A stretch of DNA of 64,000 bases from an uncultured Chloroflexota bacterium. GTDB taxonomy: Bacteria > Chloroflexota > Dehalococcoidia > Lucifugimonadales > GCA-002694895. Shown here piece after piece: positions 55,769-61,623 of the stretch. How positions within the stretch are numbered: the stretch's first letter is position 1; every line of letters starts with the position of its first letter. The notes below the pieces were generated by a model, which saw only the letters and a program-made list of their open reading frames with translations, made no database searches and was not told the DNA's origin. A program made the position numbers and the translations under genes. The DNA lies in assembly GCA_913045935.1 (NCBI GenBank), contig CAJWSY010000002.1, forward strand, positions 19,181 to 83,180, read 5' to 3'.

Positions 55769-55954
55769 TTAACTTGCTTTGTTAAATTTTCGTAAATTAA
55801 TTTTCATGTTCTTTTTTTTAAGTTTAGGATTTGAATAATCTACCCATCCACACATTATGCAAGTTGGCTCAAAACTGTCCATTGATACAATTGAACTACA
55901 TTTTGGACACTTATTTGAATGGATTGATGTACCAGTGTTTTTCTTATTGTTCAT
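55769..55954 (-). CDS. Small zinc-ribbon protein
   Basis: CPKC...CIMCGW; GAGG SD. Confidence 0.6.
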   Translation of the reverse strand: MNNKKNTGTSIHSNKCPKCSSIVSMDSFEPTCIMCGWVDYSNPKLKKKNMKINLRKFNKAS

Positions 55955-56021
55955 GATGTACCTCTTATATAATTATTAACTAGACCTTATACTAGTATTG
56001 TTAAGAAATATTGAAGAATAA

Positions 56022-56258
56022 ATGGCAGAAAATCTAATACTTGACTTACACCAAGTAAGGCATGAAGAAGCAGAAATACTTGTTGATCGATTCATAAATG
56101 AAAATTGGGGTAAAAATCTTTATTTTCAAATTATTACTGGTAATTCAGAAATAATGAAAAATATTGTTATCGAAAAATTGGATTTGTATGAATTGGAATT
56201 TTCTGTTGGAGAAAAGTGGAATCCAACTAATTCAGGTTATATCACAGTACTTATTTGA
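56022..56258 (+). CDS. Stand-alone Smr-domain protein
   Basis: LDLH, IITGNS, NSG...V. Confidence 0.72.
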   Translation: MAENLILDLHQVRHEEAEILVDRFINENWGKNLYFQIITGNSEIMKNIVIEKLDLYELEFSVGEKWNPTNSGYITVLI

Positions 56259-56919
56259 TGTTCTTATCAAGAAATTCTATTGTTCTTAAGTATGATAAAT
56301 CGGCAGCTTCTTTATTATAGATTTCAGATCTTTCATCGTTGAAAAATGCGTGTTCTGTTCCTGGATAGATATGAAATTGGAAATCTTTTTTGTTTTTACT
56401 AAATTCTAATTCTAATTCTTCTAATGAATCAGTAGCTTTATCATGTTCTGCGTAATGCCCTAACACAGGACAATTAGTTTTACTCCAGTCAGGTGAGGAA
56501 TTTACTAAAACTCCATAGTAGGGTACCGATGCATCAATGACATTTTGAGTGGCCATATATAGCGCCAATCCACCACCCATGCAGAAACCTATACAACCTG
56601 TTTTGTCATTGGAGACGTAATTTTCTTTTATATATAGAATACCTTTTTTTATTTTATCTGAAGCTTCATCTATTTTTAATTCCATCATTAATTTTTGTGC
56701 TTCATTTGGTTCCGTAGCAGTTTTTCCATCATACAAATCAGGAGCTAATACTACGTATCCCTCTTTTGCATATCTGTCTGCAACTTCTTTTATATGTCCT
56801 ACTAAACCCCACCATTCTTGTAATATGATTAATCCTGGTCCAGATCCTGTGTCAGGCAATGATAGATAGCCTTGCAAGCTGTTTGAATTTCCATATGATA
56901 CTATTTTGCCATTTATCAT
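56251..56919 (-). CDS. Dienelactone hydrolase family
   Basis: QEWWGL, APDLY, GFCMGG, HAFFN. Confidence 0.93.
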   Translation of the reverse strand: MINGKIVSYGNSNSLQGYLSLPDTGSGPGLIILQEWWGLVGHIKEVADRYAKEGYVVLAPDLYDGKTATEPNEAQKLMMELKIDEASDKIKKGILYIKENYVSNDKTGCIGFCMGGGLALYMATQNVIDASVPYYGVLVNSSPDWSKTNCPVLGHYAEHDKATDSLEELELEFSKNKKDFQFHIYPGTEHAFFNDERSEIYNKEAADLSYLRTIEFLDKNIK

Positions 56920-56926
56920 TTTTGAC

Positions 56927-57496
56927 CTATTTATCTTGAATAAGTATTACTTTGGTACCTGCTATCATATCATGAATGCATCTTCTGTCTGTTCTAAATA
57001 TAAAAAGAATATCAACTAACCTGATTATTACTCCAACTACGGGGAACAAGCCAATGAGACCAATAATCCATTCTCTTAAAATTACGTTAGTTAAAAAACC
57101 ACAAGGATTTCCATCTTTATCAATAATAATAATATTCATAAATCTTTTACCAAGAGTTTGAGATATGGTAGCTAAAAGATAATATTGATAAATCATGAAA
57201 GACAATCCAGCTACAACAGCACCTATTATTGCTTTTCCTCCACCAACAGTAATAGCGATTATAGTACCAACTATAACTACAGCTAATACTCCTAATAAGC
57301 CATCAACAAGCCTTGCTAGAAGTCTTTTTGTTCTACTGGCTAAAATATAATCATATGGTTGACTTGGTGGTTCAACTGATTCTTCAAAAAGCTGTTCTGA
57401 ATTTATTTTGAATAAATCAATACCACAATTATTGCAAAATTTATCAGTATTTTTGTACTCTACACCACATTCTTTGCAAAACTTTGATTCTTCCAT
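56927..57496 (-). CDS. Zinc-ribbon + RDD family membrane protein
   Basis: CKECG...FCNNCG; R..A.LVD, QTLGK, HD.IAGT.V. Confidence 0.88.
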   Translation of the reverse strand: MEESKFCKECGVEYKNTDKFCNNCGIDLFKINSEQLFEESVEPPSQPYDYILASRTKRLLARLVDGLLGVLAVVIVGTIIAITVGGGKAIIGAVVAGLSFMIYQYYLLATISQTLGKRFMNIIIIDKDGNPCGFLTNVILREWIIGLIGLFPVVGVIIRLVDILFIFRTDRRCIHDMIAGTKVILIQDK

Positions 57497-57503
57497 ATTG
57501 AGA

Positions 57504-58076
57504 TTAATTAGTTGATTTTTTTAATAGTTCAAGTGTTTTTGCTAACAAGTAATCAGTAGGAGGTCTATCTGACGCGGAACTGCCAATGTGAGACCATAAT
57601 ATTTTTTTGTTTTTATCTACTACAAATGCAGCAGGTGCAGCAACACTATCACCTAAAACATTAAATACGCCCCATTCCTGCGAAATAGTAAAAGTATTGT
57701 CAGATATCATACTGAACTTAGCATCAACATCATTTCTCATCGCATCAGTATTTTCCACATCATCAGTACTTACTGTAATAATATCAATTCCAAAGCGTTT
57801 GAATAAATTATGATTTTGTGACAACTCACCTAGTTGTGCTCTACAAATACCTCAGAAATAACCTCTGTAAAAAACAATTATTACAGATTGGTAATTTGCA
57901 AGAGATTGATCTATTGCATTATTTAGAGATGGGTCTAATGAAATCGACTGAGTTAAATCATCAGAGCTGTTATCATTTATATTTTCACTGCTTGAACAAC
58001 TAATGATAGTTAGAACACTAATTGAAAACAAAAGAATAAATGATAATTTTATAACTCGAGTTAAATTTTTAATCAT
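57504..58076 (-). CDS. Peroxiredoxin-like (AhpC/TSA) lipoprotein selenoprotein, UxxC, 190 aa via UGA recoding
   Basis: Track ORFs 57852-58076 and 57504-57824 are in one frame, separated only by TGA at 57854-57852 in FYRGYF*GICRAQLGEL; SECIS-like hairpin follows; lipobox IISC. Confidence 0.85.
57815..57847 (-). other. Putative bacterial SECIS element
   Basis: After the UGA: UUUGU-AGAGC-ACAACU-[AGGUG]-AGUUGU-C-ACAAA; G-containing apical loop 20 nt after the UGA. Confidence 0.7.
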
Positions 58077-58083
58077 AATTAGG

Positions 58084-58887
58084 CTAATGTAAATCTTTAT
58101 ATTTAAAAGTAATAAAACTTATTGTGATAAATATTATACATAATAATGACATTATAAATACATCAAAGAAATCCATTCCATTTACAATAGGATTTGAATT
58201 TTTATAATAATGAAACACTGAAAAATATTTCATGTTTTTTGTTGCATCAATCAACGGGCTGATTGCATTCATAAAATGCGATAATATAGCTATTGCTGCA
58301 CTGATTGATAAAGTTTTGTTTTTATTGCCTGTGATAGATCCTATAAGTAAGGATAAGCTGCCAAACACTAAACTTAATAATGCTAGATGTATGATTGTAC
58401 CGAGTAACTTCAATCCTTCAAGGTCTAAAGAGAATATATACGAAAAAATCATGAAAGATATAAATATGAATAAACTTACAGAAAATATTTTAGTGAGCAT
58501 AACAAGAATATTTTGTATCAAATAATTGTTTCTAGAAATTGAGCTAGACATAATTATCTCAATTGTTTTGTTATTTAATTCTCCCGCTATGATACCAGTG
58601 CCACTATTTATTCCAATTATTATTAACATTATTGGACCAAAAACTCCAAATATTTCTAAATTTAAAAAACCAGCGAATGTGGACATGTCTAATCCATTTT
58701 CAGCTCCCAAGAGATTTAACAATTCCTTTGGAAAGCTATCAATTAAATCATTAAATGATTCAAGATTTTCTGAAAATGAATTATAAGCGAAAGAAAGATA
58801 AAAACTTAATGTTAATAACCCTATTAACCAATATGTTAAATTTGTTCTCAAATCCCTTAAGTTTTTTAGGTATACATTTTTAAACAT
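58084..58887 (-). CDS. ABC-2 type exporter permease
   Basis: Six TM segments, IAGE...TIE...S..ISR, S.FHYY. Confidence 0.88.
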   Translation of the reverse strand: MFKNVYLKNLRDLRTNLTYWLIGLLTLSFYLSFAYNSFSENLESFNDLIDSFPKELLNLLGAENGLDMSTFAGFLNLEIFGVFGPIMLIIIGINSGTGIIAGELNNKTIEIIMSSSISRNNYLIQNILVMLTKIFSVSLFIFISFMIFSYIFSLDLEGLKLLGTIIHLALLSLVFGSLSLLIGSITGNKNKTLSISAAIAILSHFMNAISPLIDATKNMKYFSVFHYYKNSNPIVNGMDFFDVFIMSLLCIIFITISFITFKYKDLH

Positions 58888-58898
58888 AGTTAAATTAT

Positions 58899-59786
58899 TT
58901 AATAATAAGTAAGAAAAATTTCTTCTAAATCTGATTCTAACACTCTGATATTTATGACAGTAAATTTTGAAATGGTTTTGATCATGTCATCTACATTCCC
59001 TTTTATTGAAAATGTACAATTTTTATCTTTGATTTTTAAATTTGATATACCTTTTATTTTGGTTAATTTACTTTTTAGTGGTTTTTGATCAAAAGTAATT
59101 TCATACTTTTTTATAGATTTATTTTTTAGTTCAGCAATATTTTCTGAAGCAATTAATTCTCCGTCTTTTATAACTCCAACTTTTTCACATAAATCTTCAA
59201 TTTCATTTAATATGTGAGATGATAAAAGAATACTACATCCTAATTTATTATGCTCTTTGATTATATTTTGAAATTCATGTTGTTTCAGAGGATCTAGTCC
59301 TGTTGTAGGTTCATCTAATATAGCAATCATTGGATTATTCATAAATGTTTGAATGATTCCTATTTTCTGTTTATTGCCTTTGGATAATTCATTTATTTTT
59401 TTATTAAGGTCAAGATCAAGTTGTTCTGCAAGTTTTTGTATGTTGTTTTGTTTAGCATTTCTTAGATTGCTTATATATGACAAGTATTGATTCCCATTCA
59501 AATTAGAATACATTTCATACTCACCAGGCAAATAACTTATATTGGCTTTTTCATTTTGAGACAAATTATCTTTCCCGAAAATTTTAGTGCTTCCCGAATC
59601 TGGTGAAATCAAATTTAACATGGATCTTATTGTTGTTGTTTTCCCTGCACCATTAGGCCCCATTAATCCGTATATTTCACCTTGATTAATATCAAAAGAA
59701 ATTTTATTTATACCTTTGTTTTTACCATAAAATTTTGTAAGATTCGTGACCTCAACAATTTTTTTGTTTTTAAGATTTGAATTCAT
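58899..59786 (-). CDS. ABC exporter ATP-binding protein
   Basis: GPNGAGKTT, LSKGNKQK, LDEPTTGLDP, SSH. Confidence 0.95.
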   Translation of the reverse strand: MNSNLKNKKIVEVTNLTKFYGKNKGINKISFDINQGEIYGLMGPNGAGKTTTIRSMLNLISPDSGSTKIFGKDNLSQNEKANISYLPGEYEMYSNLNGNQYLSYISNLRNAKQNNIQKLAEQLDLDLNKKINELSKGNKQKIGIIQTFMNNPMIAILDEPTTGLDPLKQHEFQNIIKEHNKLGCSILLSSHILNEIEDLCEKVGVIKDGELIASENIAELKNKSIKKYEITFDQKPLKSKLTKIKGISNLKIKDKNCTFSIKGNVDDMIKTISKFTVINIRVLESDLEEIFLTYY

Positions 59787-59843
59787 AGGCAGACATGCAT
59801 TAAAATTGTTTTGATAATAACATAATGATTATACGGTGTACAC

Positions 59844-60641
59844 ATGAACAAAATTAATTTAGCATTTATTGGTTGTGGCGCTATTTGTACACAGATTATT
59901 CAGTATTTAAATGAAAATTTACCAAATAAATTTGATATAAAAATAATTATTGATAACAATATTAATCGCACAAAAAAGAAATGTGAAAATTGGAATATTA
60001 AACCTGTAATTTCAGATCAATTTGCTGATTATTTAGTACAAAATGATATAGATTTAGTTATAGAATCTGCATCCGTAAATTCAGTAAAAAATTATGCAAT
60101 AGAAATATTGAGTAAATCAGACCTTTTAATTGCTTCAGTAGGAGCATTGTCAGATGAGAAGTTTTATTCTAAATTATTATCTCAATCAGTCGAATATAAT
60201 AATAAATTGATTATTCCACATGGGGCTATAGGAGGCCTTGACGCAATAGGAGCAGTAAAAAATTCGATTTCATTTATCAAAATCACAACAACTAAATCAC
60301 CTGAAAGCCTCATTGGATCGGAGGGTTTTAAAAAATATGAAAATCACAAATTTGAAAACAAAAAACTAATTTTTAAAGGATCTGCAAAAGAGGCTATATC
60401 TTTGTTTCCTAAAAATTTAAATGTTGCTGTAACTTTAAGCTTATATGGAGTTGGAACTCAAGATACTAATGTGGAATTGATCGTTGATCCTGATATTAAA
60501 ACTAATAAACACACAATATATCTCGAAGGTGATTTTGGTACAATGAACTTTGATTTCTCTCTTAACCAATCTTTAACAAACCCAAAAACAAGTGCACTGG
60601 CAGCTTTATCTATAATTAAATCTTTAGAGGATTACAAATGA
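59844..60641 (+). CDS. nadX: L-aspartate dehydrogenase
   Basis: IGCGAI, ESAS, SVGAL, GAIGGLD, FPKNLNVA, NPKTS.LA. Confidence 0.9.
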   Translation: MNKINLAFIGCGAICTQIIQYLNENLPNKFDIKIIIDNNINRTKKKCENWNIKPVISDQFADYLVQNDIDLVIESASVNSVKNYAIEILSKSDLLIASVGALSDEKFYSKLLSQSVEYNNKLIIPHGAIGGLDAIGAVKNSISFIKITTTKSPESLIGSEGFKKYENHKFENKKLIFKGSAKEAISLFPKNLNVAVTLSLYGVGTQDTNVELIVDPDIKTNKHTIYLEGDFGTMNFDFSLNQSLTNPKTSALAALSIIKSLEDYK

Positions 60642-60943
60642 ATTTTATTGTGAAATATGTAAAAGGTGAACTCAAACTAAAATTTTCATTTCTTATATTT
60701 GTTGTTGGAATTATTATTACTGAATTTATTAATCAAACTTTAGTTTCGTCTCTTGGTTTAAGTTTTTTTAAATGGATCGCATTTGGTTTTGTGTTTTGGC
60801 TCATACTAGGAAGTTATAAATCAACCCAAATATTCATAAATGCAAATAGGGGACCAATAAAAAAACGATTACACGCTCTTGCATTTAAAAGTTTTATTAT
60901 GGTTTATGCAGTTTTCTATTATCTAATTTTTTTTAGAAGCTAA
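60638..60943 (+). CDS. Small 3-TM hypothetical protein
   Basis: ATGA overlap with nadX; three hydrophobic segments. Confidence 0.65.
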   Translation: MNFIVKYVKGELKLKFSFLIFVVGIIITEFINQTLVSSLGLSFFKWIAFGFVFWLILGSYKSTQIFINANRGPIKKRLHALAFKSFIMVYAVFYYLIFFRS

Positions 60944-61122
60944 TCTTTATTTCTTCTTACTACTGCCTGACCCACAATCCTATTATTCTTCCTAGAAGAA
61001 TCGGTATGCATTATTGGAGAACCGTATAATTCCCAACCCTTATTCAAAAATTCTGTAACTCTATCACAAAATTCACTATTATCTTCTCCTGTAAGGAGTT
61101 TGTATTCTGCTATTTCATTCAT
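60940..61122 (-). CDS. DUF1737-family protein
   Basis: Y.LLTG.D...FC.RV...L..GW.LYGSP ... GQAVV; AAGGAG SD. Confidence 0.85.
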   Translation of the reverse strand: MNEIAEYKLLTGEDNSEFCDRVTEFLNKGWELYGSPIMHTDSSRKNNRIVGQAVVRRNKD

Positions 61123-61135
61123 ATCTAACTCCTTA

Positions 61136-61477
61136 TTAGTCTAATTTTAAAAATGAACTAAAATCAGGTGATGGTGATTTTATTTCGACAAATACTGTAT
61201 CTTCTATGGCTTTGATCATATGTTTTTGTCCTATAGGATTAACCCATGTGTCACCTGGTCCTAATATTGATGATTTACCATCTCCTATCACGTCTAATTT
61301 TCCTGAAATAATTACACCCAAGGATTCATGCTCATGAGTATGTAAAGGAGTTTCTGAACCTGAAGTTAATTTCATTTTGATAGCGCTCATATTCTGAGCT
61401 TCTTCTTGAATTTTCAGATATAGATCACCTGAAATATCATTCCCTTCTAAATTAGTTAATTTTTTGTATTCACTCAT
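61136..61477 (-). CDS. Cupin domain protein
   Basis: PLHTHEHE...ISG ... GD....P....H. Confidence 0.85.
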   Translation of the reverse strand: MSEYKKLTNLEGNDISGDLYLKIQEEAQNMSAIKMKLTSGSETPLHTHEHESLGVIISGKLDVIGDGKSSILGPGDTWVNPIGQKHMIKAIEDTVFVEIKSPSPDFSSFLKLD

Positions 61478-61493
61478 TTTTTTATCCTTTTAA

Positions 61494-61577
61494 TGCCGAA
61501 GGTGAGATTCGAACTCACACAGGGTTTACCCCTACTGGTTTTTGAGACCAGCGTGTCTACCGTTCCACCACTTCGGC
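61494..61577 (-). tRNA. tRNA-Leu (CAA)
   Basis: GCCGAAG acceptor stem, GGTAGAC D-arm, CTGGT-CTCAAAA-ACCAG anticodon arm, long variable arm, GTTCGAATC T-loop; CCA not encoded. Confidence 0.96.
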
Positions 61578-61623
61578 TTGTAATATTGAGTTAGATTATA
61601 ACTAATATTTAATCAAAATAATA

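Follow-up and report, generated by a model that had tools for sequence, protein, structure and literature searches.

A conserved in-frame TGA marks a predicted lipid-anchored UxxC selenoprotein with a peroxiredoxin-type scaffold in marine Chloroflexota

The minus strand of the window, the whole 64,000-nucleotide stretch of Chloroflexota DNA analysed here, holds a gene at 57504–58076 whose translation gives 190 residues with a single internal stop, a TGA at 57854–57852 lying between VFYRGYF and GICRAQLGEL. The ORF caller split the gene into pieces of 74 and 106 aa, and the proposal of an earlier note, which did not give the strand, that these are one frame broken by a TGA was borne out by the single 190-codon frame. 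The gene belongs to a co-directional run with an ABC-2 exporter pair on one side and an RDD-family gene on the other, separated from each by a 7-nt gap, and its DNA stretch is present in marine metagenomes. Its features are collected in Table 1 together with further genes of the same genome that are discussed below.

Table 1. Coordinates of the features of the gene in the window and of related genes on other contigs of the genome
Feature	Location	Strand	Basis or remark
Whole gene, 190 codons + TAA	57504..58076	-	AhpC/TSA (PF00578) domain at residues 58-160
Predicted lipoprotein signal peptide, residues 1-27, lipobox I-I-S-C	57996..58076	-	sequence pattern
Lipobox Cys27	57996..57998	-	Cys conserved in 6 same-genus orthologues
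S/N/D-rich low-complexity linker, about residues 28-45	57942..57995	-	predicted disordered
In-frame TGA, codon 75, inferred selenocysteine	57852..57854	-	frame and conservation across relatives
Cys78, second residue of UxxC (UGIC)	57843..57845	-	alignment
SECIS-like hairpin	57821..57837	-	6-bp stem ACAACU/AGUUGU; loop AGGUG 57831-57827; invariant G at 57830
Proposed lower stem	57815..57847	-	UUUGU 57847-57843 with ACAAA 57819-57815; formable here, not conserved
Pro148	57633..57635	-	column of the thioredoxin-type proline and of the peroxiredoxin catalytic Arg (alignment)
Lipoprotein, FTPT-U-GHC	G000 C3:33421-33933 (L118)	+	UxxC gene split at TGA
Lipoprotein, WEES-U-ATC	G000 C1:28191-28742 (L119)	-	UxxC gene split at TGA
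Protein with N-terminal membrane helices, YSNF-U-AAC	G000 C10:7901-8434 (L120)	+	UxxC gene split at TGA
DUF2652 protein	G000 C47:122-865 (L123)	-	in-frame TGA at first Cys of CxCxxC; SECIS-like hairpin
Deiodinase-like Sec candidate	G000 C3:83987-84754	-	known family
Tandem-rhodanese sulfurtransferase Sec candidate	G000 C16:6908-7768	-	known family
AhpD-like (CxxU) Sec candidate	G000 C17:20098-20661	-	known family
SelD Sec candidate	G000 C7:3459-4511	-	known family
CcdA-like membrane protein, two Cys motifs	G000 C9:9298-10059 (L113:1299-2060)	+	in ccmA/B/E/D/C cluster

Read with the TGA as U, the protein scored 73.6 bits against the AhpC-TSA model of Pfam (cut-off 26) and 54.6 bits against Redoxin, and no NCBIfam model passed its cut-off. 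An Rfam scan of 57300–58300 returned four chance-level matches and none to a SECIS family, and a promoter and terminator scan of 55900–61600 returned 38 sites where 36.7 were expected. Elsewhere in the window, a small Smr-domain-like ORF (56022–56258, plus strand; below the cut-off) ends in a TGA followed by a Cys and 27 open codons; this extension overlaps the end of the next gene and has no good hairpin, and its TGA is probably an ordinary stop.

The TGA of the present gene is conserved well beyond the genus. Six of the seven other genomes of the genus carry an orthologue (60–74% identity) with one TGA each, and the seventh gave a weak unrelated match only. A class-wide search of 251 genomes (E 1e-10 or better) found matches in 32 genomes with TGA in 43 of 45, the two exceptions being a fragment and the weakest hit, while a phylum search with a Cys-bearing homologue as the query found TGA in 54 of 55 matches (35 of 401 genomes), and five of five metagenome loci carry it as well. 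Altogether, TGA occupies the identical motif position in 47 sites from 44 loci, a set drawn from the genus and class searches from which the fragment L086 and the weaker, partial or duplicate loci L042–L054 were excluded, and the TGA-bearing loci span genera at 28–74% protein identity. Counted among the 47 sites are a protein that has two Sec domains and a locus that has three. Multiple domains took several forms: in L039 (G038) a Pro/Thr linker connects the two Sec domains of a tandem protein, in L075/L104 (G182) adjacent genes supply three (L075), and in L153 (G401) two lie side by side.

Sequence data from other libraries touched the codon in a few places. RNA-library contig X16, an assembled contig and not raw reads, bridges the TGA codon and differs only at 57870, and contig X15 from the same study reaches 30 letters on one side of the codon. 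Parts of the gene are also covered by RNA contigs of three runs, but transcription does not follow from this coverage. Among the pieces listed for DNA runs X1, X2 and X8 none bridges the codon, and the DNA contig of X5 that spans it has one differing letter of unstated place and was therefore not counted as confirmation.

Reading the Sec column in 147 cluster representatives gave 100 Cys, five Ser and one Trp, with 41 lacking a readable motif, many of which are fragments beginning after it. Cys, which the earlier note had expected of homologues at this column, accordingly accounts for 100 of the 106 readable motifs. A quick tree built from 149 rows placed 46 of the 47 Sec domains in one clade of 62 rows (SH-aLRT 95) that also holds 14 Cys proteins, one Ser protein and one Trp protein. 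Trp stands at the column in 14 close full-length database relatives and in one further protein. The 14 relatives come from contigs of 0.7–3.1 kb and are 89–98% identical to genomic loci reading TGA, and long contigs give the split 106-aa piece rather than a Trp version; the Trp versions most plausibly reflect the gene caller's choice of table 4. Standard annotation does miss the gene, as had been anticipated, since public protein sets hold either the 106-aa fragment or a protein with Trp at the catalytic position, a systematic annotation error that the present reading corrects.

The genome assembly (1.33 Mb, 76% complete) also encodes the selenocysteine machinery whose presence elsewhere in it the earlier note had implied. 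The tRNA-Sec (selC) scored 63.7 bits against a cut-off of 47, and selA (495 bits), selB (278 bits) and selD (309 bits) each exceeded their cut-offs, selD carrying an in-frame TGA of its own. Release factor 2 (RF2) is encoded and TGA terminates 220 of the 1208 ORFs of at least 100 aa, indicating that UGA has not been reassigned in general; tRNA-Trp(CCA) is present, and the sole tRNA with a TCA anticodon is of the Sec type. The prfB match (G000 C14:28833–29873, minus strand) contains one TAA, presumably owing to the programmed frameshift of RF2. At the class level, selA was found in 29 of 30 genomes with a TGA-bearing match compared with 177 of 251 in the background, a comparison in which kin are not independent and to which the unpublished genome G282 contributes as background only. 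The single TGA-bearing class genome lacking a selA match has selB.

A two-stem hairpin had been described just after the UGA, and only its upper stem stood up to comparison. The loop of ACAACU-AGGUG-AGUUGU begins 20 nt after the UGA. According to the legend of Fig. 2 in PMC13188914, the bacterial SECIS model comprises a loop of 3–9 nt with a G among its first two positions and an upper stem of 4–16 bp, at 16–37 nt from the UGA; the hairpin fits this geometry with its 5-nt loop AGGUG, loop G, 6 bp and 20-nt spacing. Across 32 aligned sequences (32 of the 47 sites, near-duplicates left out), the upper stem was paired in 96% of cells and the lower stem in 51%, and a conserved lower stem UUUGU/ACAAA was rejected on this account. 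RNAalifold predicted only the six upper-stem pairs for the same alignment, and the covariation score of the upper stem was reached by none of 500 shuffles and by no slid control.

The stem lies over the codons of Q-L-x-E-L, which prompted an examination of synonymous codon choice. The stem codon pairs at 37 distinct sites were CAA/TTG (14), CAG/CTG (18), CAG/TTG with a G-U pair (4) and CAA/CTG (1). GC-rich genes use CAA at 17 of 38 stem sites, always with TTG, compared with 32 of 152 sites elsewhere in those genes, and AT-rich genes use GAG at nine of nine stem sites compared with 10 of 75 elsewhere, while the other QLxEL sites of the genome show pairing codons in none of nine cases. The Fisher p of 7e-6 from this analysis is an overstatement, because kinship makes the sequences statistically dependent. 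All 47 of 47 Sec sites have a loop codon starting with G, whereas a G-initial codon would be possible for the residue at that place in only 51 of 100 Cys homologues. The folding energy was not above chance for segments of 45 nt (z -0.28) or 65 nt (z 0.15); the minimum free energy was -6.8 kcal/mol for the former and -8.7 kcal/mol for the latter, whose lowest-energy fold differs from the hairpin, relative to a SECIS model threshold of -7.5 kcal/mol or below (PMC13188914). Support for the hairpin rests on covariation at synonymous positions of the upper stem, not on folding energy. The hairpin provides a clean case of a SECIS within a coding helix that is kept by compensatory synonymous changes and could be used for a SECIS model of the lineage.

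Two readings dispense with selenocysteine. Reassignment of UGA to Trp or Gly, which would turn the motif into WxxC or GxxC, draws on the Trp found at the column in the 14 full-length database relatives and the further protein, but these 14 proteins sit on contigs of at most 3.1 kb and their genomic counterparts read TGA, and the presence of RF2, tRNA-Trp(CCA), a single TCA tRNA of the Sec type and ordinary TGA stops led to its rejection as wildly improbable. Under the standard code the in-frame stop could also mean that the gene is a pseudogene, that the sequence contains an error or that two small proteins are encoded separately, the second of them possibly starting at a TTG; nevertheless, the retention of TGA across genera at the divergence given above was decisive against this reading, and contig X16, the constrained synonymous positions of the hairpin and the fact that a split would halve the UxxC motif argue in the same direction, so that it has next to no probability. 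The TGA at codon 75 is almost certainly decoded as selenocysteine. Those checks of the earlier note that were carried out all spoke for its reading of the gene.

The signal peptide with an IISC box (residues 24–27) and the S/N/D-rich linker reported in the earlier note are both present in the sequence, and the AlphaFold model has a pLDDT below 50 for residues 22–45. Lgt and LspA are both encoded in the genome, and many of its 28 lipoprotein candidates start with similar IISC, LISC or ILSC boxes. By pattern match, a hydrophobic stretch and then a Cys precede 39 of the 47 sites and 20 of 27 in the phylum set. The remaining eight of the 47 comprise four with a transmembrane helix and no Cys, one second tandem domain, one cut by the locus end, one probable lipobox missed by the pattern and one without an in-frame signal. 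Lipoprotein-type signals also occur in many Cys homologues, indicating that export is a trait of the family and not a peculiarity of this gene. An exported location is therefore not as unusual as the earlier note held, given how widespread the lipobox pattern is and that other exported bacterial selenoproteins have been described, whereas a lipid-anchored and extracytoplasmic protein is what the lipobox together with Lgt and LspA predicts. A real selenoprotein without a lipid anchor, having an uncleaved N-terminal helix or a domain facing the cytoplasm, would suit the non-canonical nature of IISC, the four relatives with a transmembrane helix and no lipobox Cys, and the drawing of residues 2–26 as one helix by AlphaFold; it is very unlikely in view of the Cys that follows the hydrophobic stretch in most sites of both sets, the similar boxes of the genome's lipoprotein candidates and the presence of both processing enzymes. 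The gene product is predicted from its sequence to be a lipid-anchored, outward-facing protein. In one family of relatives (f36: L062, L063, L074 and L080), an acidic N-terminal tail and a transmembrane helix replace the lipobox, and Cys versions of this form also exist (P0067 and P0139).

The structural evidence came from an AlphaFold model with Cys in place of Sec, built on an 18-row alignment with partial and chimeric rows (pLDDT 72.9). Foldseek matched it to ResA/DsbE and to peroxiredoxins alike, and in a second structural comparison all of the best 50 rows were Prx-family proteins (Z 14.1–15.7), placing the model nearer to peroxiredoxins than to ResA, and its predicted structure has a Prx-type fold. 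In the alignment with AhpC, the catalytic Pro, Thr and Arg of peroxiredoxins fall on Arg71, Sec75 and Pro148, and R-G-Y-F-U-G-I-C departs from the PxxxT/SxxC motif, represented in AhpC by P-A-D-F-T-F-V-C. Cys78 occupies the column of the peroxidatic Cys in AhpC and of the C-terminal Cys in the DsbE-like WCxxC, and Pro148 aligns with the Pro of the DsbE-like protein; this column holds Pro in 42 of the 47 sites, another residue in four of the 46 readable ones and Arg in none of the 46. With the catalytic residues missing, 'Prx-like', the term of the earlier note, describes the scaffold only: the fold supports it and the replaced triad does not.

Nine Sec candidates, the present gene included, were found in the 76%-complete 1.3-Mb genome, and eight of the nine strongest post-TGA hairpins in a genome scan belong to Sec candidates. 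Three of the other candidates are likewise UxxC genes split at a TGA; L118, L119 and L120 occur in six, five and at least four of the seven other same-genus genomes, respectively, with TGA in every match. Outside the genus, L118 and L119 were not found at E 1e-8 in 33 genomes, and no NCBIfam model passes for any of the three. The DUF2652 candidate L123 was not found in the seven same-genus genomes, and none of its 21 distant matches, spread over 15 of 400 class genomes, contains a stop. DUF2652 does not appear in the main text of a 2026 review (PMC13188914), and within its coverage a literature search joined it to no selenoprotein. This single instance may represent a new selenoprotein family, or its TGA could be an error or its contig a stray.

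The genomic neighbourhood offered hints of function in some relatives. In 16 extended loci, for which 53 of 192 ORFs were scanned, picked as neighbours, the gene directly follows ccmC of a ccmA-ccmB-ccmC set in three (three genomes, one family), once with ctaG next and once with cytochrome oxidase genes nearby, and it adjoins a CopC-CopD-cytochrome c fusion in two (two genomes, two other families). No Pfam match to a ccm or cop gene was obtained among the neighbours in the other 11 extended loci. Reading the neighbour ORFs of 30 short loci by eye gave further ccmB/ccmC/ctaG cases in the ccm family (L068 and L072), and no assembly genes were seen in the rest. Within this genus, the gene follows the ABC-2 exporter pair in seven of seven loci. 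Upstream of the selenoprotein gene in three families (L093:6525–7193, L094:8515–9222 and L095:4782–5495) lies a similar-looking exported protein with no Pfam match that begins AH-x-x-R-x-VG-x-Y-x-F-x-VGF; in two of the three families it occurs with the CopC-CopD-cytochrome c fusion, and it is possibly a copper-handling protein.

Genes for CcmC/CcmF-type proteins are present in eight of eight genus genomes, and the genome studied here also has CcmH, a lipoprotein cytochrome c and a Sco-like lipoprotein. It further encodes two Cys-type ResA/TlpA-like proteins, recognized by motif (C20:1450–2025 and C16:22994–23503), so the present gene is not needed as CcmG. A putative electron donor lies on contig C9 (Table 1); this CcdA-like gene had Atlas scores of 0.95–0.97 to clusters with DsbD_TM in 16% and 51% of their members, and its assignment, drawn from a Cys motif read by eye and from the Atlas, serves as a lead. 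In the eight genus genomes (65–89% complete), the DsbD_TM model found nothing over its cut-off, missing the CcdA-like gene too, and VKOR was found in none; a PDB sequence search with the CcdA-like protein gave no match.

Since the catalytic triad of peroxiredoxins is missing, the protein is likely an envelope thiol-disulfide oxidoreductase resembling ResA/TlpA. TlpA reduces ScoI and CoxB, according to the portion of PMC6669012 that was available, and this analogy favours an envelope disulfide reductase over a surface peroxidase. The conserved-UGA frame thus probably encodes a predicted lipid-anchored, outward-facing UxxC oxidoreductase of this kind with selenocysteine at its active site. In the proposed mechanism, the GG-loop hairpin 20 nt after the UGA would bind SelB, which would deliver Sec-tRNA; once the protein is exported, Lgt would attach the lipid at Cys27 and LspA would carry out the cleavage. 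Sec75 would then attack a disulfide of an envelope protein and Cys78 would resolve the mixed bond to a selenenyl-sulfide, which a CcdA-like membrane protein may re-reduce by passing on electrons of cytoplasmic thioredoxin. The enzyme's most probable clients, at least in its ancestors, would be apo-cytochromes c and, in oxidase assembly, the Cys pairs that bind copper.

The main competitor of this reading keeps the selenoprotein lipoprotein but has it reduce peroxides, or oxidised thiols or lipids, on the cell surface, where Sec75 would be the peroxidatic residue in the manner of glutathione peroxidases. Peroxides are rapidly attacked by selenolates, and glutathione peroxidases carry Sec at the first position of a CxxC-like motif. 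Peroxiredoxins are the best structural matches, AhpC-TSA outscores Redoxin (73.6 against 54.6 bits), the C-terminal D-R-P matches G-R-D of AhpC, and assembly genes are absent around most loci. The missing Prx triad speaks against peroxidase activity, and the neighbourhoods with ccm, ctaG and copCD seen in three families are in keeping with activity on protein disulfides; a peroxidase is accordingly a serious but lesser possibility. As for the envelope reductase, a narrower and distinctly speculative proposal, backed by gene context in some relatives only, is that this lipoprotein serves the maturation of cytochrome c and of copper centres as a selenium-dependent reductase, one of at least four outward membrane-anchored UxxC enzymes. 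If this doubtful proposal were true, assembly of the aerobic respiratory chain in small-genome ocean Chloroflexota would depend on selenium; a literature search found no paper on such a role. More broadly, the gene points to a Sec-based redox system in the envelope of abundant marine Chloroflexota.

Among known systems, peroxiredoxins (AhpC, BCP/PrxQ, Prx6 and PrxU) share the scaffold (Z up to 15.7, rmsd 2.7, 142 aligned) and have their peroxidatic Cys at the position of Cys78, but the gene carries Sec at the first rather than the second position of the motif, the Sec form PrxU having TxxU, and all NCBIfam Prx models score far below their cut-offs. ResA, TlpA and CcmG (DsbE) resemble it at the sequence level in the predicted membrane anchor, the CxxC-type pair and the thioredoxin-position Pro and, for some relatives only, in the ccm or copper-gene context, whereas the gene has FYRGxxUxxC in place of their WCxxC and reaches 30 of 170 bits for ResA and 17.3 of 123 for DsbE. 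The SelL-related NF040769 is the best NCBIfam match, yet at 54.5 bits it remains below the cut-off of 120. CDD PRX_like2 (cd02970) can be likened to the gene by its description of PRX-like proteins only, which bear CXXC and lack the other two triad residues according to the accessible text of PMC3514251. The SAO system (SaoB, SaoX and SaoC) likewise comprises bacterial families that have signal or lipoprotein signal peptides and include Sec forms, as described in the available text of a preprint (bioRxiv 10.1101/2022.07.06.499078), but its members are substrate-binding or unrelated folds of anaerobic Firmicutes without a redoxin domain.

Literature searches, with most subscription journals outside their coverage, turned up no publication about lipoprotein redoxin selenoproteins from this lineage and nothing on SAR202 with a selenoprotein. 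BSepDB, as presented in the accessible part of PMC13326102, places two Dehalococcoidia genomes among its ten selenoprotein-richest (49 and 46 genes), and the gene may therefore already be listed there. The closest known system is the Prx-like thiol:disulfide oxidoreductase (PF00578; UxxC, UxxU), listed in Table 1 of PMC13188914, whose catalogue covers 119 prokaryotic selenoprotein families, and 225 sequences of 'Prx-like 1' are given for the Global Ocean Sampling selenoproteome in the available text of PMC2398784, in agreement with the earlier statement that UxxC Prx-like selenoproteins exist in marine microbes. The shared features are PF00578 over its cut-off, UxxC, Cys homologues, a downstream SECIS and a marine source, and the placement follows from domain, motif and description. 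To this family the Chloroflexota clade adds a lipoprotein signal and a linker; the main text of the 2026 review contains none of the words 'lipoprotein', 'signal peptide' and 'Chloroflex'. The gene is a new member of the catalogued Prx-like UxxC selenoproteins, a kind of system that is already known.
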